Below, piece by piece: positions 19,745-30,040 of a stretch of DNA of 64,000 nt; the stretch's first letter is position 1, and every line of letters begins with the position of its first letter. The stretch is from Escherichia phage vB_Eco_mar004NP2. Below the pieces are notes generated by a model. The model saw only the letters and a list, made by a program, of their open reading frames with translations, ran no database searches and was not told where the DNA came from. The stretch is taken from the sequence record NC_048205.1. One strand, written 5' to 3'. The translations under genes and the position numbers were made by a program.

Positions 19745-20629
19745 ATGTATAACTTTAAAGATAAACTAAGACAAAATGCTGGTAAAACAAAACCTAAAGA
19801 GAATAATAATGTTCCTAATGCCAAAGTATTACCATTTCCAGAACTGTCTCAAGAAGAAAAAGATAAGTTAGCATTTATGTTTGATGCTCTTCTAGGGCTA
19901 AGTGGACGTTTATATTCCTCACTCAATATTAATGAGAAACGTCTAGTAGAGATGTTCTGTAAACGTTACCAAGTTACTTCAAAGGGCAATTCTTATAAAG
20001 AAGGTGAAAAAGCATTTACAGTCTTAAAGATTAGCGCATATGCACATCGTTTCTTAGTTTATGGATTGCAAATGGAATACTTCACCATCCCATCATTTAG
20101 CTCTTTCCATATCTTTGAAGATGAACGAATGAATATTGATGATCTCTATGGGGATACGTACAAATACTCAGGAAGTCCATTCCACGATGCATTAAGGAGC
20201 TACCCTACTAGTTACTTACCAGTTAGGGCATCTCAAGGTAAAGCTAGCGTTTTTGCTGTTTACTCAGGATCTAAAGCATCGGATCTAGAAACTTATATAT
20301 TTAAAGAGCGTAAATCTGTACTTCCAGATGAAGCATTGTATAGCAATCCATTGCTTCCAGAAAAAGAACCAGAGAAAATTGATGTAACCCCACCAATCCC
20401 ATCTGATTCTCAATATTTAATTTATGAGAAACAAGTTAAGTTATCCCTAGAAATTGGGTTAGTTACACCGCTTGCTGCAGCGTTCATAAATAGATACCTA
20501 GAAATCCCAGATGAGTTCCACCAACGTTATAATACGAATATTCAGATAACGGATGAATTAATTGCGTTAGCAAAAGATACACCTACTGACACTGAGGCGT
20601 ATCAAAAAGCATACCAAGAGTTATTATAA
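19745..20629 (+). CDS. hypothetical protein, 294 aa; last gene before the higher-GC island
   Basis: ORF with RBS AACGGGAGATAATA. Confidence 0.6.
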   Translation: MYNFKDKLRQNAGKTKPKENNNVPNAKVLPFPELSQEEKDKLAFMFDALLGLSGRLYSSLNINEKRLVEMFCKRYQVTSKGNSYKEGEKAFTVLKISAYAHRFLVYGLQMEYFTIPSFSSFHIFEDERMNIDDLYGDTYKYSGSPFHDALRSYPTSYLPVRASQGKASVFAVYSGSKASDLETYIFKERKSVLPDEALYSNPLLPEKEPEKIDVTPPIPSDSQYLIYEKQVKLSLEIGLVTPLAAAFINRYLEIPDEFHQRYNTNIQITDELIALAKDTPTDTEAYQKAYQELL

Positions 20630-21991: not shown

Positions 21992-22096
21992 AAGAATGGA
22001 AGCGAGAAACACTATTATTTAAGTTACCCACAGACTTATTAACAGCACGATTTGATTTGACAGAATCCTAGCCATTTTGAGGCGTTATCAACAGAC

Positions 22097-22105
22097 TTAT
22101 CCACA
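22097..22105 (+). promoter_or_regulatory. DnaA box TTATCCACA
   Basis: exact 9-mer consensus inside left IR arm. Confidence 0.6.
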
Positions 22106-22113
22106 GCTTATCC

Positions 22114-22133
22114 TACTGTATAAATATACAGTA
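22114..22133. promoter_or_regulatory. LexA (SOS) box-like palindrome TACTGTATAAATATACAGTA
   Basis: CTGT-N8-ACAG with AT-rich spacer, 19/20 match to E. coli consensus TACTGTATATATATACAGTA. Confidence 0.55.
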
Positions 22134-22389: not shown

Positions 22390-22584
22390 TTAGTCTGGTA
22401 GTCGATGCGTGATCTTTTCCTCCTCCCCGTAGGAATCCACCAAATGCTGATAATAACCATCGTGATCATAAATCACTTTATCATACTCGCCACGCTCGAC
22501 CGCTTGTCGGTTTTCCGGCGTATCGGGCACGTAAAAAACATCAACCATTGTACTGATTTTGGTTACAACAATTTTATTGCTCAT
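22390..22584 (-). CDS. cassette gene 7, hypothetical acidic protein (64 aa from internal ATG)
   Basis: ORF track 22390..22614 uses TTG; ATG at 22584 has AGGGG RBS. Confidence 0.4.
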   Translation of the reverse strand: MSNKIVVTKISTMVDVFYVPDTPENRQAVERGEYDKVIYDHDGYYQHLVDSYGEEEKITHRLPD

Positions 22585-22686
22585 AATAACCCCTAGTAAA
22601 TATATTTTTGCCAATAGTGGCGAACGTTATCGCCACCAGCGGAATCATTTGCAGCCTCAACATTACCCGCGAAAATATATATAATC

Positions 22687-23031
22687 TCATTGCGCCACCT
22701 TTCGAAACGCTGTTTCAATACTATCCGCAGTGGATTGAATATACGCGCCTTTCATTATCAGGCGCTCGGTGCATATCTTGCGAAAAATATTAATAAAATC
22801 ATCTTCATTTTCTGCAATTAACGCCTCACCCATGACCTGAACGTCGCAAGATGCAAAGGTCAAAAATTGAAACGCTAGTTCACGGGCAACGACCGCATTG
22901 ATTTTATAATGCGCCTTGCCTTCATAAATATTAATAACGCCCTTATAAGCTGGGGAAAGCTGATTTAAGTAGTTTGCTAGTAATGCCGGACGGCAATTAG
23001 CAACAAAACGATTGCCTTCATAAATTACCAT
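22687..23031 (-). CDS. cassette gene 6, hypothetical protein, 114 aa
   Basis: ATG at 23031 with GGGGAG RBS, 1 nt after upstream stop; the track start 23070 is a TTG that would overlap the upstream gene. Confidence 0.45.
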   Translation of the reverse strand: MVIYEGNRFVANCRPALLANYLNQLSPAYKGVINIYEGKAHYKINAVVARELAFQFLTFASCDVQVMGEALIAENEDDFINIFRKICTERLIMKGAYIQSTADSIETAFRKVAQ

Positions 23032-23032
23032 T

Positions 23033-23245
23033 TTATAGCACTCCCCGAAACGCAGCGTAAAAGGTGGCAAAATGTTTAACTGTTTCAGCTATCACGTTGC
23101 CCCGTTTATCGAATTTTTTCTCGGTAACACGGAAGGCGTTTTTATTTCGCGCTACATATTCAATTTTACAATCTTCCCGCTCGAACGTGTTAACGTCCAC
23201 CAGCTTAAAGCCTTTTGAACGTGCAAGGGAAACGTTACGAATCAT
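23033..23245 (-). CDS. cassette gene 5, hypothetical basic protein, 70 aa
   Basis: ORF directly after small TM ORF. Confidence 0.45.
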   Translation of the reverse strand: MIRNVSLARSKGFKLVDVNTFEREDCKIEYVARNKNAFRVTEKKFDKRGNVIAETVKHFATFYAAFRGVL

Positions 23246-23247
23246 TT

Positions 23248-23397
23248 TTATTCTCCTTTACTAGTCATGCAGCCCAGCAGATAAGAAAATACAGCGATAC
23301 CCGCACCAATAATAACCGCGTGAACGCCGAAAGCTATTGCAAAAAGTGATAAAATAGCGCCCAAGATACCTGCTAGAATAGCTCGAAAAATAACCAT
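23248..23397 (-). CDS. cassette gene 4, small hydrophobic protein, 49 aa (not in ORF track)
   Basis: ATG after AGGAGG RBS; MVIFRAILAGILGAILSLFAIAFGVHAVIIGAGIAVFSYLLGCMTSKGE, two predicted TM helices. Confidence 0.35.
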   Translation of the reverse strand: MVIFRAILAGILGAILSLFAIAFGVHAVIIGAGIAVFSYLLGCMTSKGE

Positions 23398-23446
23398 TTG
23401 TGATAGCCTCCTAGTTATCGGGGGATATTATATCCCCCGTTATTAA

Positions 23447-23677
23447 TTACATTAAAACAATTTTTGCAGCTTGTTTTTTGGTGCAATGTTCCGCCTTCAG
23501 GGTATCCAGCAAAAAGCCAGCCGTTTGCTGATCGATTTTATCGGCGTTATATAGTTCCTGAATGGTATTATAGGTTTTAGCAATACCGAACTCCTGCACC
23601 ATTTCATAGATGACAGCACGATTAGATACCCAGCCTTGCGCGGTAAACAGATGACTAGCAGAAGAATAAGCAACCAT
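23447..23677 (-). CDS. cassette gene 3, hypothetical protein, 76 aa
   Basis: internal ATG at 23677 with GGAGG RBS preferred over track start 23710. Confidence 0.45.
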   Translation of the reverse strand: MVAYSSASHLFTAQGWVSNRAVIYEMVQEFGIAKTYNTIQELYNADKIDQQTAGFLLDTLKAEHCTKKQAAKIVLM

Positions 23678-23783
23678 TTTAAGCCTCCAAATTTTTGGGA
23701 AAATTTTCAACCGTCCTTAAACGGTGTAAAGGCATTATAACAAAAAAGGCCACCAATTATGGCGACCTTTACAAAACTTTACA

Positions 23784-24278
23784 TTAAACTACTTGTAATG
23801 TTTCAATATTGAAACATCGTTTCAATTCGTCATGCAAAACAGCGTATTCATCCCATCGGGTACTATCAGGGATATAAACAAGCTGTTTTAGTCGGTTTGC
23901 GTATATTACCGCTTTATTTCCGATTATTTCAGCGCCACCATATTTAATAATTAATTTCATGACGGAATTAATAGGATCGCCGCCGTTTACATATGTGCCG
24001 GATTTACTTAATTGATAATGATAAAGGCTTGCATATACATTATCATTCTCATACCATTCGCCCGTTTCCTCATCTTCATAGCCATCGCTACCAAAACGAG
24101 AAGCATTATCAACAGCCATTTCATGAGCGAAAGCGTCGAGATCCGTACCAGCAGGAACAAAATATTCCTCAGTATTCCCTTCACCGCAATAGCCAGTATG
24201 ACAATCGACCAAAATGATCATATCATGTTTAGCCTTGCTCACTTCCCCTAGCGAAAACCCATATTTTTCCTCAGCCAT
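23784..24278 (-). CDS. cassette gene 2, hypothetical acidic protein, 164 aa
   Basis: ATG with AGGAGG RBS; no recognisable motif. Confidence 0.55.
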   Translation of the reverse strand: MAEEKYGFSLGEVSKAKHDMIILVDCHTGYCGEGNTEEYFVPAGTDLDAFAHEMAVDNASRFGSDGYEDEETGEWYENDNVYASLYHYQLSKSGTYVNGGDPINSVMKLIIKYGGAEIIGNKAVIYANRLKQLVYIPDSTRWDEYAVLHDELKRCFNIETLQVV

Positions 24279-24343
24279 TTATTAGCCTCCTATTAATTAA
24301 TAAGGGAATAGTAAAGCGGGGAAACAATCCCCGCTAAATATTA

Positions 24344-25336
24344 TTACTCGCTTTCGGTGCTAGTGGTAAAAGTAGAAATATCGATACCTTTCACCATTTC
24401 ATCAATCATTTCAGCGATGTTAAAACTTTGCACCATTTCTAGCATTGCCGCTTCCATAGCTGCGCCTGCTACCGCTTTCGCTTTCTGGTTATTCGGGGCG
24501 TACTGGTCAACCGCTACGCTCAGCAGGTTAGCAATAACTACCCGACCAATCGGCGTATCAATATAACCTTTAATCATAAACGGCGCTTTTTTAGCCGCTA
24601 CTTTCGTGATTTGAGTCAATGCAATTTTGCCAGCTTCCAGTTTTGCAGCATTTACAACAGCGGATTTATTAGCGGCAACGATATTAGCGATCTTGGTCAT
24701 GGTATTATTTCCTTTGTTTTCAGTAGTTTGAGTGTTAACGCTTTGAGTGTTAGAATTTACAGCATGTTTTTCCGTGTTGTCAATAGGCTGATCTTCCTCC
24801 TTCCAGAAAGAAAAGCCCGCGCTTTCAATATCCCCATCATATACATAAGGGTACACTTCCGACGGTAACAAAAAATTACCGTTATCATCAAAGGCCATTA
24901 CAGCCGCGAAACGATACCCGTCACAATCCGACCGATTCCAGCCAACTGATAAATAACGCCAAAATGAATCAAGAAAATTTTCAATATCATAAAGATCATT
25001 GGGGTTGGCTTCATAATTTTCTATTGAAAAAACTTCTAAGCCTGCCCCAGTATCATAGGCTTTTACTGTGCTACCTTTTACGATTATGAAATCAGTATCC
25101 GGCCCTCGACTAGTGAGCAATTGATAATCTTGATTATATAAAACAAGCGTTGCCCCTTGTTTATATAACGGTAGAAAACTATTCATATCATAGGCATCGA
25201 AATCACCAAAAAAGTTTTGGTGAATAGTTTCAGCCTTGTTAATAAAATGTTTAATGCTGGTTGTTCTGCTACCGTCCAGCAGGTTACGCAGCGCACCTTT
25301 TAAGACGGTTGCGTTATCTGGTTTATATAGCCTCAT
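24344..25336 (-). CDS. cassette gene 1, hypothetical two-domain protein, 330 aa (Ala/Lys-rich C-terminal third)
   Basis: ATG with GAGGGAGG RBS; preceded by own promoter. Confidence 0.6.
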   Translation of the reverse strand: MRLYKPDNATVLKGALRNLLDGSRTTSIKHFINKAETIHQNFFGDFDAYDMNSFLPLYKQGATLVLYNQDYQLLTSRGPDTDFIIVKGSTVKAYDTGAGLEVFSIENYEANPNDLYDIENFLDSFWRYLSVGWNRSDCDGYRFAAVMAFDDNGNFLLPSEVYPYVYDGDIESAGFSFWKEEDQPIDNTEKHAVNSNTQSVNTQTTENKGNNTMTKIANIVAANKSAVVNAAKLEAGKIALTQITKVAAKKAPFMIKGYIDTPIGRVVIANLLSVAVDQYAPNNQKAKAVAGAAMEAAMLEMVQSFNIAEMIDEMVKGIDISTFTTSTESE

Positions 25337-25367
25337 TTGTTGGCCTCCCTCGTTAATCGGTGAGTGA

Positions 25368-25397
25368 ATGATAAAGGCAATTTTCTAGCATAGGCAA
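25368..25397 (-). promoter_or_regulatory. sigma70 promoter of antisense cassette (-35 TTGCCT, 18 bp, -10 TATCAT on - strand)
   Basis: hexamers read on reverse complement, AT-rich upstream element, about 30 nt upstream of gene 1 start. Confidence 0.5.
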
Positions 25398-25472
25398 ATA
25401 TTATTTTACCTTTTTATTTTCCTTGCCTAGCGCCTAGTTTTATGCTAACCGCGCAGCGGTACAGTAAAGAGC

Positions 25473-25510
25473 AAAACACGGTGAAGCCACCAGGGCGACG
25501 GGTGAAGGCT
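25473..25510. terminator. hairpin GTGAAGCC...GGCTTCAC, terminator-like on both strands
   Basis: stem with T-rich flank on either strand, between right IR and cassette promoter. Confidence 0.4.
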
Positions 25511-25601
25511 TCACTTTAATATTACCCCACCGCATTTAGCTCGTTAGAAAGCGTTTTAGGCCGCCTAAAATTGATTGCAGTTGTTAACACTACCTTTTTA
25601 C

Positions 25602-25712
25602 CCTGTATATTTATACAGTAGGATAACATGTGGATAAGTCTGTGGATAAGTCCTTATATCGTCGCCTATCGTGTCAAATCATTTTGTGCTGTTAATAAAC
25701 TTGTGGATAACT
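25602..25712. repeat. right arm of inverted repeat; contains LexA-like box CTGTATATTTATACAG (25603-25618) and three DnaA boxes
   Basis: TGTGGATAA at 25629, 25641, 25702 (reverse complement of TTATCCACA). Confidence 0.8.
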
Positions 25713-25994
25713 TAAATGATAGTGGTTCTCACTTAGGACGATAGTTTCTTATAGTTATTATTTCTATCGGTTACGATTTCTTATAATTATTATTTCTCAT
25801 TAATTTATAAGTATATTATATATCATGAAATAGTTAGTTGGCTAATGAGATTTTCCGTGATTAATAGTCTGCTAACAGTTCCGGCTGTTACAATCCACCA
25901 GCATGATTATCATCCTAGCAACTATTAGTCTGCTATCTTTCCGATGCATACTAACAAATAAAAGTCAATTAATTTATTTCATAAAATAAGTAGT

Positions 25995-26027
25995 TATCCA
26001 CTGGAAAATAAAAGTCAAGTGGATAAC
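25995..26027. promoter_or_regulatory. pair of DnaA-box-like sites (TTATCCACT / AGTGGATAA) in inverted orientation
   Basis: 8/9 matches to TTATCCACA; TTATCAACA also at 26061. Confidence 0.45.
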
Positions 26028-26482
26028 TAGGAAAATTTCATTTTTGCTTTTGGGGATAAGTTATCAACAAGGCTAGAATGCGCCTAAAACGCCCTATAAC
26101 GCGATGAAGTTTTTAGCCATGCCATTGCATTGCCTACCCTCGTTTATCGCTACCACGAGCTTTTTAGTTTTTGTCAAGTAGGGCAAGGCAAATATAAATG
26201 AAAAAATTACTTGCCAACCTGCTGGGTTTTATGGTATTCGCGCGCCCGTTTCCTTTAATTTTAGTGCGCCGCGCCCAGGTCGCCGCACGGTGTCCGGTGG
26301 CATTTTGTCTTTACGTTTCTTTACAAAAATAAGGTTGCGCCATTTTTACTATTTGCTATTATTTATCTCGTAGGGCGGCAATGACGAACTACACGGCGGG
26401 AAGTTTACCGCCGCGCTCTTTAAAAATTGGGTACATCTTAAAGTCTATCGGCGGTAAACTTATATTATAAGGAATCGCAGAT

Positions 26483-29688: not shown

Positions 29689-29744
29689 ATAATTAATCCC
29701 CTAGCGGCTTGAAATATAGCCGCTATTACAGGAGCTAAATTAGA

Positions 29745-30002
29745 ATGAAAGTTACATTACCCAAAACGCTAGACGAAAAAGCATTTATTTCACCGGATGA
29801 AATGGAATCCGATAAAGTTTACAGCTTCGGGCCTATTCTAGCCGCCAAAACTAATACTGATGGGATTATTACGGTCGATTATCGTGATAATGATATTGTA
29901 CCCTTTGACGATGATGGTGCTTTTTATGAGTGGCTAAGCGATAATAATTTACCCGTAAACGGTGAATTAACGCCGTACCAGATGCAGATTATTATCAAAT
30001 AA
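29745..30002 (+). CDS. pre-early acidic protein, 85 aa
   Basis: ORF with CAGGAGCTAAATTAGA RBS. Confidence 0.5.
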   Translation: MKVTLPKTLDEKAFISPDEMESDKVYSFGPILAAKTNTDGIITVDYRDNDIVPFDDDGAFYEWLSDNNLPVNGELTPYQMQIIIK

Positions 30003-30040
30003 ATTAAATCCATTATTAAACTAATTGGAGTTTTATAAAC

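Follow-up and report, generated by a model that had tools for sequence, protein, structure and literature searches.

Seven minus-strand genes of Escherichia phage vB_Eco_mar004NP2 as the probable 011-017 arm of a T5-type pre-early region

A 64,000-nucleotide stretch of Escherichia phage vB_Eco_mar004NP2 (NC_048205.1; the whole of this stretch is referred to as the window) carries, at positions 22390-25397, a cassette of seven genes on the minus strand. The cassette is best read, with a probability of roughly 0.9, as the right-hand arm of a T5-type first-step-transfer (pre-early) region, genes 011-017, sharing its position, orientation and order with T5 011-017 (NC_005859 6495-9157). The phage is T5-like and belongs to Tequintavirus in the Demerecviridae; 437 phage records match the 3.2-kb region, with Salmonella phages PMBT29 and SPLA5b (99.5%) and Escherichia phage mar004NP2 (99.3%) as the closest. 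Searches with blastp and tblastn recovered six orthologues in the T5 order, with identities of 68-100%. The cassette is already described and partly characterised T5 biology, with little that is new: the T5 genes have been annotated since 2004-2005, a toxicity screen of them dates from 2021 and a deletion of the whole block from 2026. An initial annotation, made from the sequence alone, had implied novelty, which does not hold, as six of the seven genes are ordinary conserved T5 pre-early open reading frames (ORFs), an outcome that it had itself named as contrary to its view, and the seventh, encoding 164 amino acids (aa), is an ORF of the same ordinary, conserved kind in T5 relatives.

The location of the cassette points to the same identity. 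When T5 pre-early proteins are mapped onto the window, T5.018 matches an early gene on the plus strand (19745-20626), which is followed by the repeat field; the minus strand then carries 017, a stub of 016, 015, 014, 013, 012, the 164-aa gene and 011, and, after a non-coding spacer, the plus strand carries a partial 009, hdi, 007, A2, 005, A1, 002 and dmp. All T5 pre-early genes but 003, hegG and 016 map to the window with the T5 order kept, and the window, as read from its sequence, is a circularly collapsed assembly in reverse orientation relative to the T5 map. The terminal-repeat boundaries of the phage itself are invisible in a collapsed assembly, and the terminal-repeat placement comes from related records: in those of BF23 and Kenya-K18, both of which have kept the two terminal repeats, the region lies inside the annotated terminal repeat and occurs in two copies per record. 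On one side of the cassette lies the hdi/A2/A1/dmp arm and on the other the injection-stop repeat field, and DnaA-box inverted repeats flank it. The T5 gene map and the terminal-repeat location in relatives together uphold the proposed placement in the pre-early, first-step-transfer region. The description of the cassette as antisense is inaccurate, given that it is divergent from hdi/A2/A1/dmp and overlaps no gene. The whole cassette, including its promoter, is enclosed by a 132-nt inverted repeat with arms that are 80% complementary, and all four perfect DnaA boxes (TTATCCACA) of the window lie within these arms. In T5-like phages, 131-bp DnaA-box inverted repeats have been described on either side of this arm (Davison, 2020). 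From the upstream to the downstream border, the following features have been located:

25603-25734: right arm of the inverted repeat (IRCspacerIRD in T5), which holds three perfect DnaA boxes and lies upstream of the 011 promoter
25368-25397, minus strand: predicted sigma-70 promoter of 011, TTGCCT-18-TATCAT, with A-rich sequence upstream; it corresponds to the T5 promoter at NC_005859 6411-6489 ('T5P4' of AY587007)
24344-25336, minus strand: 330-aa gene, orthologue of T5.011 (79%) and BF23_00010 (93%), '37 kD pre-early protein', DUF7566
24315-24335, minus strand: hairpin after the 330-aa gene, 8-bp GC-rich stem with a weak U-tract, folding free energy (ΔG) -15.7 kcal/mol, z = -4.4
23784-24278, minus strand: 164-aa gene, orthologue of BF23_00011 (94%), phrog_6741, with no T5 counterpart
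23745-23770, minus strand: predicted intrinsic terminator, 11-bp stem followed by UUUUUU, ΔG about -16 kcal/mol, at the position of the T5 terminator after 011
23734-23742, minus strand: predicted extended -10 promoter, TGTTATAAT, serving 012-017; its counterparts are 'T5P5' in AY587007 and the second pre-early promoter predicted for BF23
23447-23677, minus strand: 76-aa gene, orthologue of T5.012 (83%)
23419-23439, minus strand: 9-bp palindromic hairpin between the 76-aa and 49-aa genes, without a U-tract
23248-23397, minus strand: 49-aa gene, orthologue of T5.013 (68%) with a 10-residue loop deleted, encoding a hydrophobic microprotein
23033-23245, minus strand: 70-aa gene, product basic (isoelectric point, pI, 10) and 100% identical to T5.014 and BF23_00014
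22687-23031, minus strand: 114-aa gene, orthologue of T5.015 (93%)
22574-22690, minus strand: 38-aa ORF that shares an ATGA overlap with the stop of the 114-aa gene, with residues 15-33 equal to the first 19 of T5.016
22390-22584, minus strand: 64-aa gene, product acidic, orthologue of T5.017 (89%)
22000-22131: left arm of the inverted repeat, IRD'spacerIRC' of T5, part of the injection stop, with DnaA boxes, forming the downstream border of the cassette

The seven minus-strand ORFs are real genes of the sizes that had been claimed (330, 164, 76, 49, 70, 114 and 64 aa). Purifying selection acts on all of them, with ratios of non-synonymous to synonymous divergence (dN/dS) of 0.05-0.15 at dS values of 0.15-1.15, in pairwise Nei-Gojobori estimates against T5 and BF23. 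Each of the seven proteins also constitutes its own PHROG family, and orthologues have been found in 344 phage records for the 164-aa gene, about 440 for 014/015 and 506 for 011. Strong ribosome-binding sites, which had been attributed to every gene, are present in six, as GGAGG/AAGGAG/GGGGAG-type sequences 6-9 nt before the ATG, and that of the 64-aa gene is weak. The statement that none of the proteins carries a recognisable motif is right as far as motifs are concerned and misses that the 114-aa protein is the orthologue of a characterised enzyme and that the 330-aa protein belongs to DUF7566. No matches to the cassette proteins were obtained in NCBIfam and PADLOC searches, and profile and sequence searches against Protein Data Bank (PDB) chains gave no significant match for the 330-, 164-, 114- and 70-aa proteins. 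Cassette composition is phage-like, and the claimed host-like GC content and codon usage have not been borne out: the GC content is 40.3%, compared with 38.8% for the window and about 51% for the host. The GC content at third codon positions is 0.37 against 0.31±0.06, and the codon adaptation index with E. coli weights is 0.305 against 0.26±0.09; the weights follow the Sharp & Li table approximately, which makes the absolute values approximate and leaves the within-window comparison unaffected.

As regards transcription, the 011 promoter aligns nearly base for base with a T5 promoter that is annotated in three independent records, and with BF23, and this near-identity upstream of 011 supports the promoter that had been proposed at 25368-25397. 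The T5 promoter upstream of 011 is one of three experimentally characterised pre-early promoters (Annor et al., 2026). A second predicted promoter, the extended -10 element TGTTATAAT, follows directly after the terminator and is unchanged in T5, BF23 and the window. These two predicted promoters and the intervening terminator, all conserved with annotated T5 and BF23 signals, would divide the cassette after the 164-aa gene, and the single compact operon of the initial annotation is not sustained. In the BF23 genome paper, the pre-early genes are said to form 'two inversely oriented transcriptional units'. The hairpin at 24315-24335 may be a leaky terminator or an RNA-stabilising element, while the palindrome at 23419-23439 would be no terminator and is possibly an RNA processing or stability element. 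Stop/start coupling, which had been ascribed to the whole cassette, is tight only in the distal run formed by the 49-, 70- and 114-aa genes, the 016 remnant and the 64-aa gene. In the T5-like phage Bas33, RNA sequencing in the presence of daunorubicin has shown transcription that is for the most part limited to the pre-early region, and proteomics has detected ten pre-early proteins, the identities of which are not stated (PMC13250531).

Studies on T5 have provided phenotypes for several of the orthologues. In a screen in which 13 T5 pre-early genes were cloned, 008, 011 and 015 were found to be toxic (Mahata et al., 2021, PMC8201957), and a later study reports seven toxic T5 pre-early genes, 011, 013 and 015 among them (Annor et al., bioRxiv 2026). 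T5.012 has been non-toxic in T5 assays, expression of 015 leads to elongated cells, and over-expression of T5.013 causes lysis-like damage and ghosts (Annor et al., 2026). A T5 mutant in which only A1, A2, hdi and 009 are left is viable and forms smaller plaques (Annor et al., 2026), which indicates that hegG-017 is dispensable and is not required for second-step transfer. On the window itself, the present analysis has established orthology, signals, selection and layout, and timing, toxicity, nickase activity and dispensability come from the T5 literature; we infer that these T5 properties carry over to this phage. The pre-early genes of T5 were also surveyed by Davison, in 2020 and reportedly in a 2015 review.

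Taken together, these data strongly favour a cassette that would be transcribed by the host RNA polymerase from two promoters once the terminal repeat enters the cell. The first unit would run from the 011 promoter through the 330-aa gene, the leaky hairpin and the 164-aa gene to the terminator, and the second from the extended -10 promoter through the 76-, 49-, 70-, 114- and 64-aa genes, the distal ones being translationally coupled. The products would serve as accessory host-takeover effectors, outside the DNA-transfer machinery: the 114-aa protein would bind host Ung and nick the abasic sites that Ung makes, the 49-aa hairpin protein would damage the membrane if over-expressed, and the 330-aa protein would disturb nucleoid organisation. 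The whole set would be dispensable on laboratory hosts and gained or lost among relatives, as variable cargo between the conserved 132-nt DnaA-box inverted repeats. Host takeover, one of the roles initially suggested, is a fair description of the cassette.

Several points weigh against this interpretation. The 011 promoter taken alone is an unremarkable match to the consensus (9/12), in a region with 23 promoter-like sites where 15.8±3.8 are expected, and the evidence for expression comes from relatives of this phage and applies to it by analogy. The 164-, 76-, 70- and 64-aa proteins are without known activity in any phage, which makes the host-takeover label one by association. A role of the 330-aa protein in DNA metabolism, considered below, draws on four metagenomic neighbourhoods and one preprint phenotype, and the AlphaFold model of this protein is poor (predicted local distance difference test, pLDDT, 60), with generic helical fold matches only.

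Three other explanations have been weighed against host takeover. In the first, at least one of the proteins that have no assigned function (164, 76, 70, 64 or 330 aa) would neutralise a host immune system that is absent from laboratory strains. The genes are early-expressed, small, non-essential and variable among relatives, this role has been left open by Annor et al. (2026), and the Tequintavirus pre-early determinant of insensitivity to restriction and CRISPR nucleases is still unidentified. DNA-mimic inhibitors are typically acidic, and the 164-aa protein resembles them in its strongly negative net charge (-15); however, it shows no sequence or fold likeness to a characterised anti-defence protein or DNA-mimic inhibitor, and no PADLOC, Pfam or NCBIfam model match points to such a function for the cassette. 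Moreover, T5 lacks the 164-aa gene and is nonetheless restriction-insensitive, restriction-sensitive Epseptimaviruses do have homologues of 011, the 164-aa gene and 014/015, and the anti-defence island mapped in T5/SP15 lies in the tRNA region rather than in this cassette. An anti-defence role is thus considered unlikely. The anti-retron protein Rad was also examined as a candidate cassette member and rejected, being a 189-aa protein of the tRNA region and lying outside the cassette.

The second is control of the injection pause or of second-step transfer, the latter having been put forward in the initial annotation; here the cassette proteins would act with the flanking DnaA-box repeats to stop or restart DNA entry. 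The cassette does lie exactly between the 132-nt inverted repeats that have been proposed as parts of the injection stop signal (Davison, 2020), and it includes a membrane microprotein. Nevertheless, T5 without hegG-017 completes infection, albeit with smaller plaques, and T5-like phages differ considerably in how far apart the repeats are and in which genes they enclose, so that such control is highly improbable and is essentially refuted by the T5 deletion mutant. Finally, that some of the small ORFs are chance frames in a conserved regulatory region, as might be supposed from the four ORFs of less than 80 aa and from the 38-aa ORF of the same region that is only a remnant, can be given next to no weight in view of the dN/dS of 0.05-0.15 for each of the seven genes, the separate PHROG families with orthologues in roughly 340-500 phage records, and the phenotypes obtained on expression of T5.013 and T5.015.

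Within the host-takeover set, the 114-aa protein has the best defined activity, and its annotation in databases appears to have been misplaced. T5.015 binds Ung and nicks the abasic sites generated by Ung (Mahata et al., 2021, PMC8201957). With 93% identity over 114/114 residues, the 114-aa protein is a full-length orthologue of T5.015, by which it would be an Ung-dependent nickase of apurinic/apyrimidinic (AP) sites, and its UniProt cluster (AAS77062.1) is named 'DNA-(apurinic or apyrimidinic site) endonuclease'. The name 'endonuclease nicking abasic sites generated by host uracil glycosylase Ung' is nonetheless attached to the 70-aa protein in RefSeq NC_005859, in PHROG phrog_4227 and in many GenBank records, while UniProt leaves the 70-aa protein as uncharacterised ('ORF015', Q5DMS9). 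The identity of T5.015 has been settled indirectly, through the gene-numbering pattern and the UniProt cluster names. The gene list of Mahata et al. (2021, PMC8201957) skips 001, 004, 006 and 010, and these skipped numbers fit only the NC_005859 numbering, which identifies T5.015 as the 114-aa protein; in the same numbering, 015 has been found to be toxic and 014 has not (Annor et al., 2026). AY587007 calls the 70-aa protein 'ORF015', from which the confusion may well have arisen. The nickase label that RefSeq and PHROG give to the 70-aa protein rather than to the 114-aa one is very probably an off-by-one transfer, and it will go on being propagated through automated annotation.

The 70-aa protein has distinctive properties of its own. 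Its gene is the most constrained of the cassette, with 0 non-synonymous and 23 synonymous changes relative to T5, and the protein is identical in the window, T5 and BF23 at a nucleotide divergence of 8-11%, with at least 90% identity in 422 of 435 phage records. For a protein that is dispensable and non-toxic, conservation to this degree is unusual. For the neighbouring 49-aa protein, the two transmembrane helices that had been suggested are supported, residues 1-44 being hydrophobic and consistent with a two-helix hairpin. Its identification as a holin or lysis membrane protein has been rejected, as it matches no Pfam holin family, falls only in its own PHROG and has pre-early rather than lysis genes as neighbours.

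The 330-aa protein, orthologous to 011, matches DUF7566 over its full length (residues 2-330, E = 3.6e-111, 372 bits against a gathering cut-off of 27). It is organised as a variable N-terminal domain (residues ~1-185), a linker rich in N, Q and T, and an Ala-rich helical C-terminal module (residues ~213-330). Between the T5-like and Klebsiella 011 proteins the overall identity is 37%, with the last ~115 residues near-invariant and the N-terminal part not. Pfam treats DUF7566 (phrog_4263) as a single unit, whereas the last ~115 residues behave here as an independent module. An exhaustive HMMER search with residues 205-330 as the query (24347-24724, minus strand) found the module in 684 clusters at 50% identity, 386 of them with E <= 1e-10. 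The module is invariably C-terminal, in proteins of 84-544 aa among the matches listed and of up to 705 aa in IMG/VR loci, and stand-alone module proteins of about 120-145 aa also occur. An N-terminal HIRAN domain is present in three of ten long module representatives, and other N-terminal regions are found elsewhere.

The genomic surroundings of this module outside the T5-like phages are suggestive of DNA metabolism. In three of four non-T5 viral contigs scanned, defined as IMG/VR contigs with no detectable A1, A2 or dmp in 8-kb flanks, the module gene stands beside genes for polymerase, ligase, exonuclease, annealase, single-stranded DNA-binding protein (SSB) and helicase or beside thymidylate synthase. 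On one of these contigs, a HIRAN-module gene is located between a DNA ligase and a run of exonuclease, Sak4 annealase, SSB and helicase genes, just past the DNA polymerase, while other IMG/VR module genes adjoin thymidylate synthase. Expression of T5 011 gives rise to uneven nucleoids (Annor et al., 2026), a phenotype with which these neighbourhoods agree, and we infer that the conserved C-terminal module is the part through which the 330-aa protein would act on DNA metabolism. In the old Paris-Orsay T5 annotation, 011 appears as a 37-kD pre-early protein encoded in the del1 region and is marked 'unessential', and it is said to resist functional predictions ('resists functional predictions'; Annor et al., 2026). 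It may tentatively be suggested, as an idea with the odds against it, that the ~115-residue module is an unrecognised, widespread effector or adaptor engaging a component that is conserved in the DNA replication or repair of bacteria, with the 164-aa protein as a possible partner. If this were true, T5-like phages would deploy the module before the bulk of their genome enters. A separable 011 module with an association to DNA metabolism offers a concrete fragment and a hypothesis for experiments.

Additional observations concern this module. One locus with the module contains two copies of it ~2 kb apart. Inside the 330-aa gene (24698-24783, minus strand), a promoter-like TTGACA-18-TAAATT (24783-24754) is found, which has no counterpart in the Klebsiella homologue. 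Some 50 nt downstream of it, an AAGGAAA site and an in-frame ATG (M213) occur at the start of the module, and T5 has the identical stretch. At the corresponding domain boundary, the Klebsiella 011 homologue has an in-frame Met with GGAG 8 nt in front of it. Judging from such signals, the 011 module may also be made on its own from an internal start. Wild-type T5 011 DNA has proved uncloneable and a recoded gene cloneable (Annor et al., 2026); speculatively, internal expression of the module would account for this.

The 164-aa gene is the member of the cassette that T5 lacks. In an alignment of the junction, T5 is without this gene and its preceding hairpin, which in the cassette stand between 011 and the terminator, and the sequence from stop codon to terminator is otherwise the same. 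T5 has most likely lost the gene, because it is present in 344 records and has homologues and relatives across other T5-like phages. Klebsiella T5-like phages carry a homologue with 35% identity, which a single gene separates from the 011 homologue upstream of it, and T5-like phages of Pectobacterium, Pantoea and Vibrio have structural relatives. The protein is acidic (pI 4.5, net charge -15) and its AlphaFold2 model has a pLDDT of 86; a fold search with this model against the PDB returned no relatives. Judged by their distribution, 011, the 164-aa gene and 015 look like an ancient core of the arm. Kept across the Demerecviridae and absent from T5, the 164-aa gene has fallen outside the T5-based screens (Mahata et al., 2021; Annor et al., 2026). 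In Klebsiella phage vB_Kpn_K7_rec11 (3932-6377), the order is 011, an unrelated 164-aa ORF, the 164-aa homologue and the 015 homologue; in the Klebsiella T5-like phages these genes lie on the A2 strand and are not divergent, and 012, 013, 014 and 017 are missing.

Among known systems, T5 is closely matched in its signals too, its promoter upstream of 011, its terminator and its extended -10 element being near-identical to those of the cassette. Unlike T5, the cassette retains only 19 codons of 016, has a 013 orthologue without the 10-residue loop and has no adjoining hegG. BF23 (BF23_00010-BF23_00018) is the closest well-annotated match, with the 164-aa gene, two predicted pre-early promoters and terminators, and differs by an extra 41-aa hydrophobic ORF (BF23_00015), which separates its 014 orthologue from that of 015. 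A functional parallel may be drawn with the class I genes of T7 (0.3-0.7), which the host RNA polymerase transcribes from the part of the genome that enters first and which are small, mostly non-essential and often toxic alone. The cassette would work in a similar manner, except that its leading DNA is a terminal repeat after which entry pauses. No sequence or fold relationship to T7-type early host-takeover sets was found in Pfam, PDB fold and PDB-chain searches.

The phage lacks hegG (T5.010, an HNH endonuclease; 25400-26480) and T5.003 (about 29700-30040), and T5.009 is matched in 28 of 35 codons, which leaves the spacer between the divergent pre-early arms as non-coding repeat DNA. Natural losses within this part of the genome have been described in relatives: DT57C is without T5.008-T5.012 (NC_005859 numbering), My1 is without T5.012-T5.016, and Gostya9 has lost parts of this arm as well (Davison, 2020). 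In the present cassette an eighth small ORF, of 38 aa, which overlaps both neighbours, marks the place of T5.016 and contains its first 19 codons (22592-22648, minus strand), the only ones to survive; the BF23 and mar004NP2 annotations place a different 31-aa frame at this site. The 38-aa ORF is probably a remnant of the deleted 016, with the look of a deletion scar, and a functional role is unlikely.

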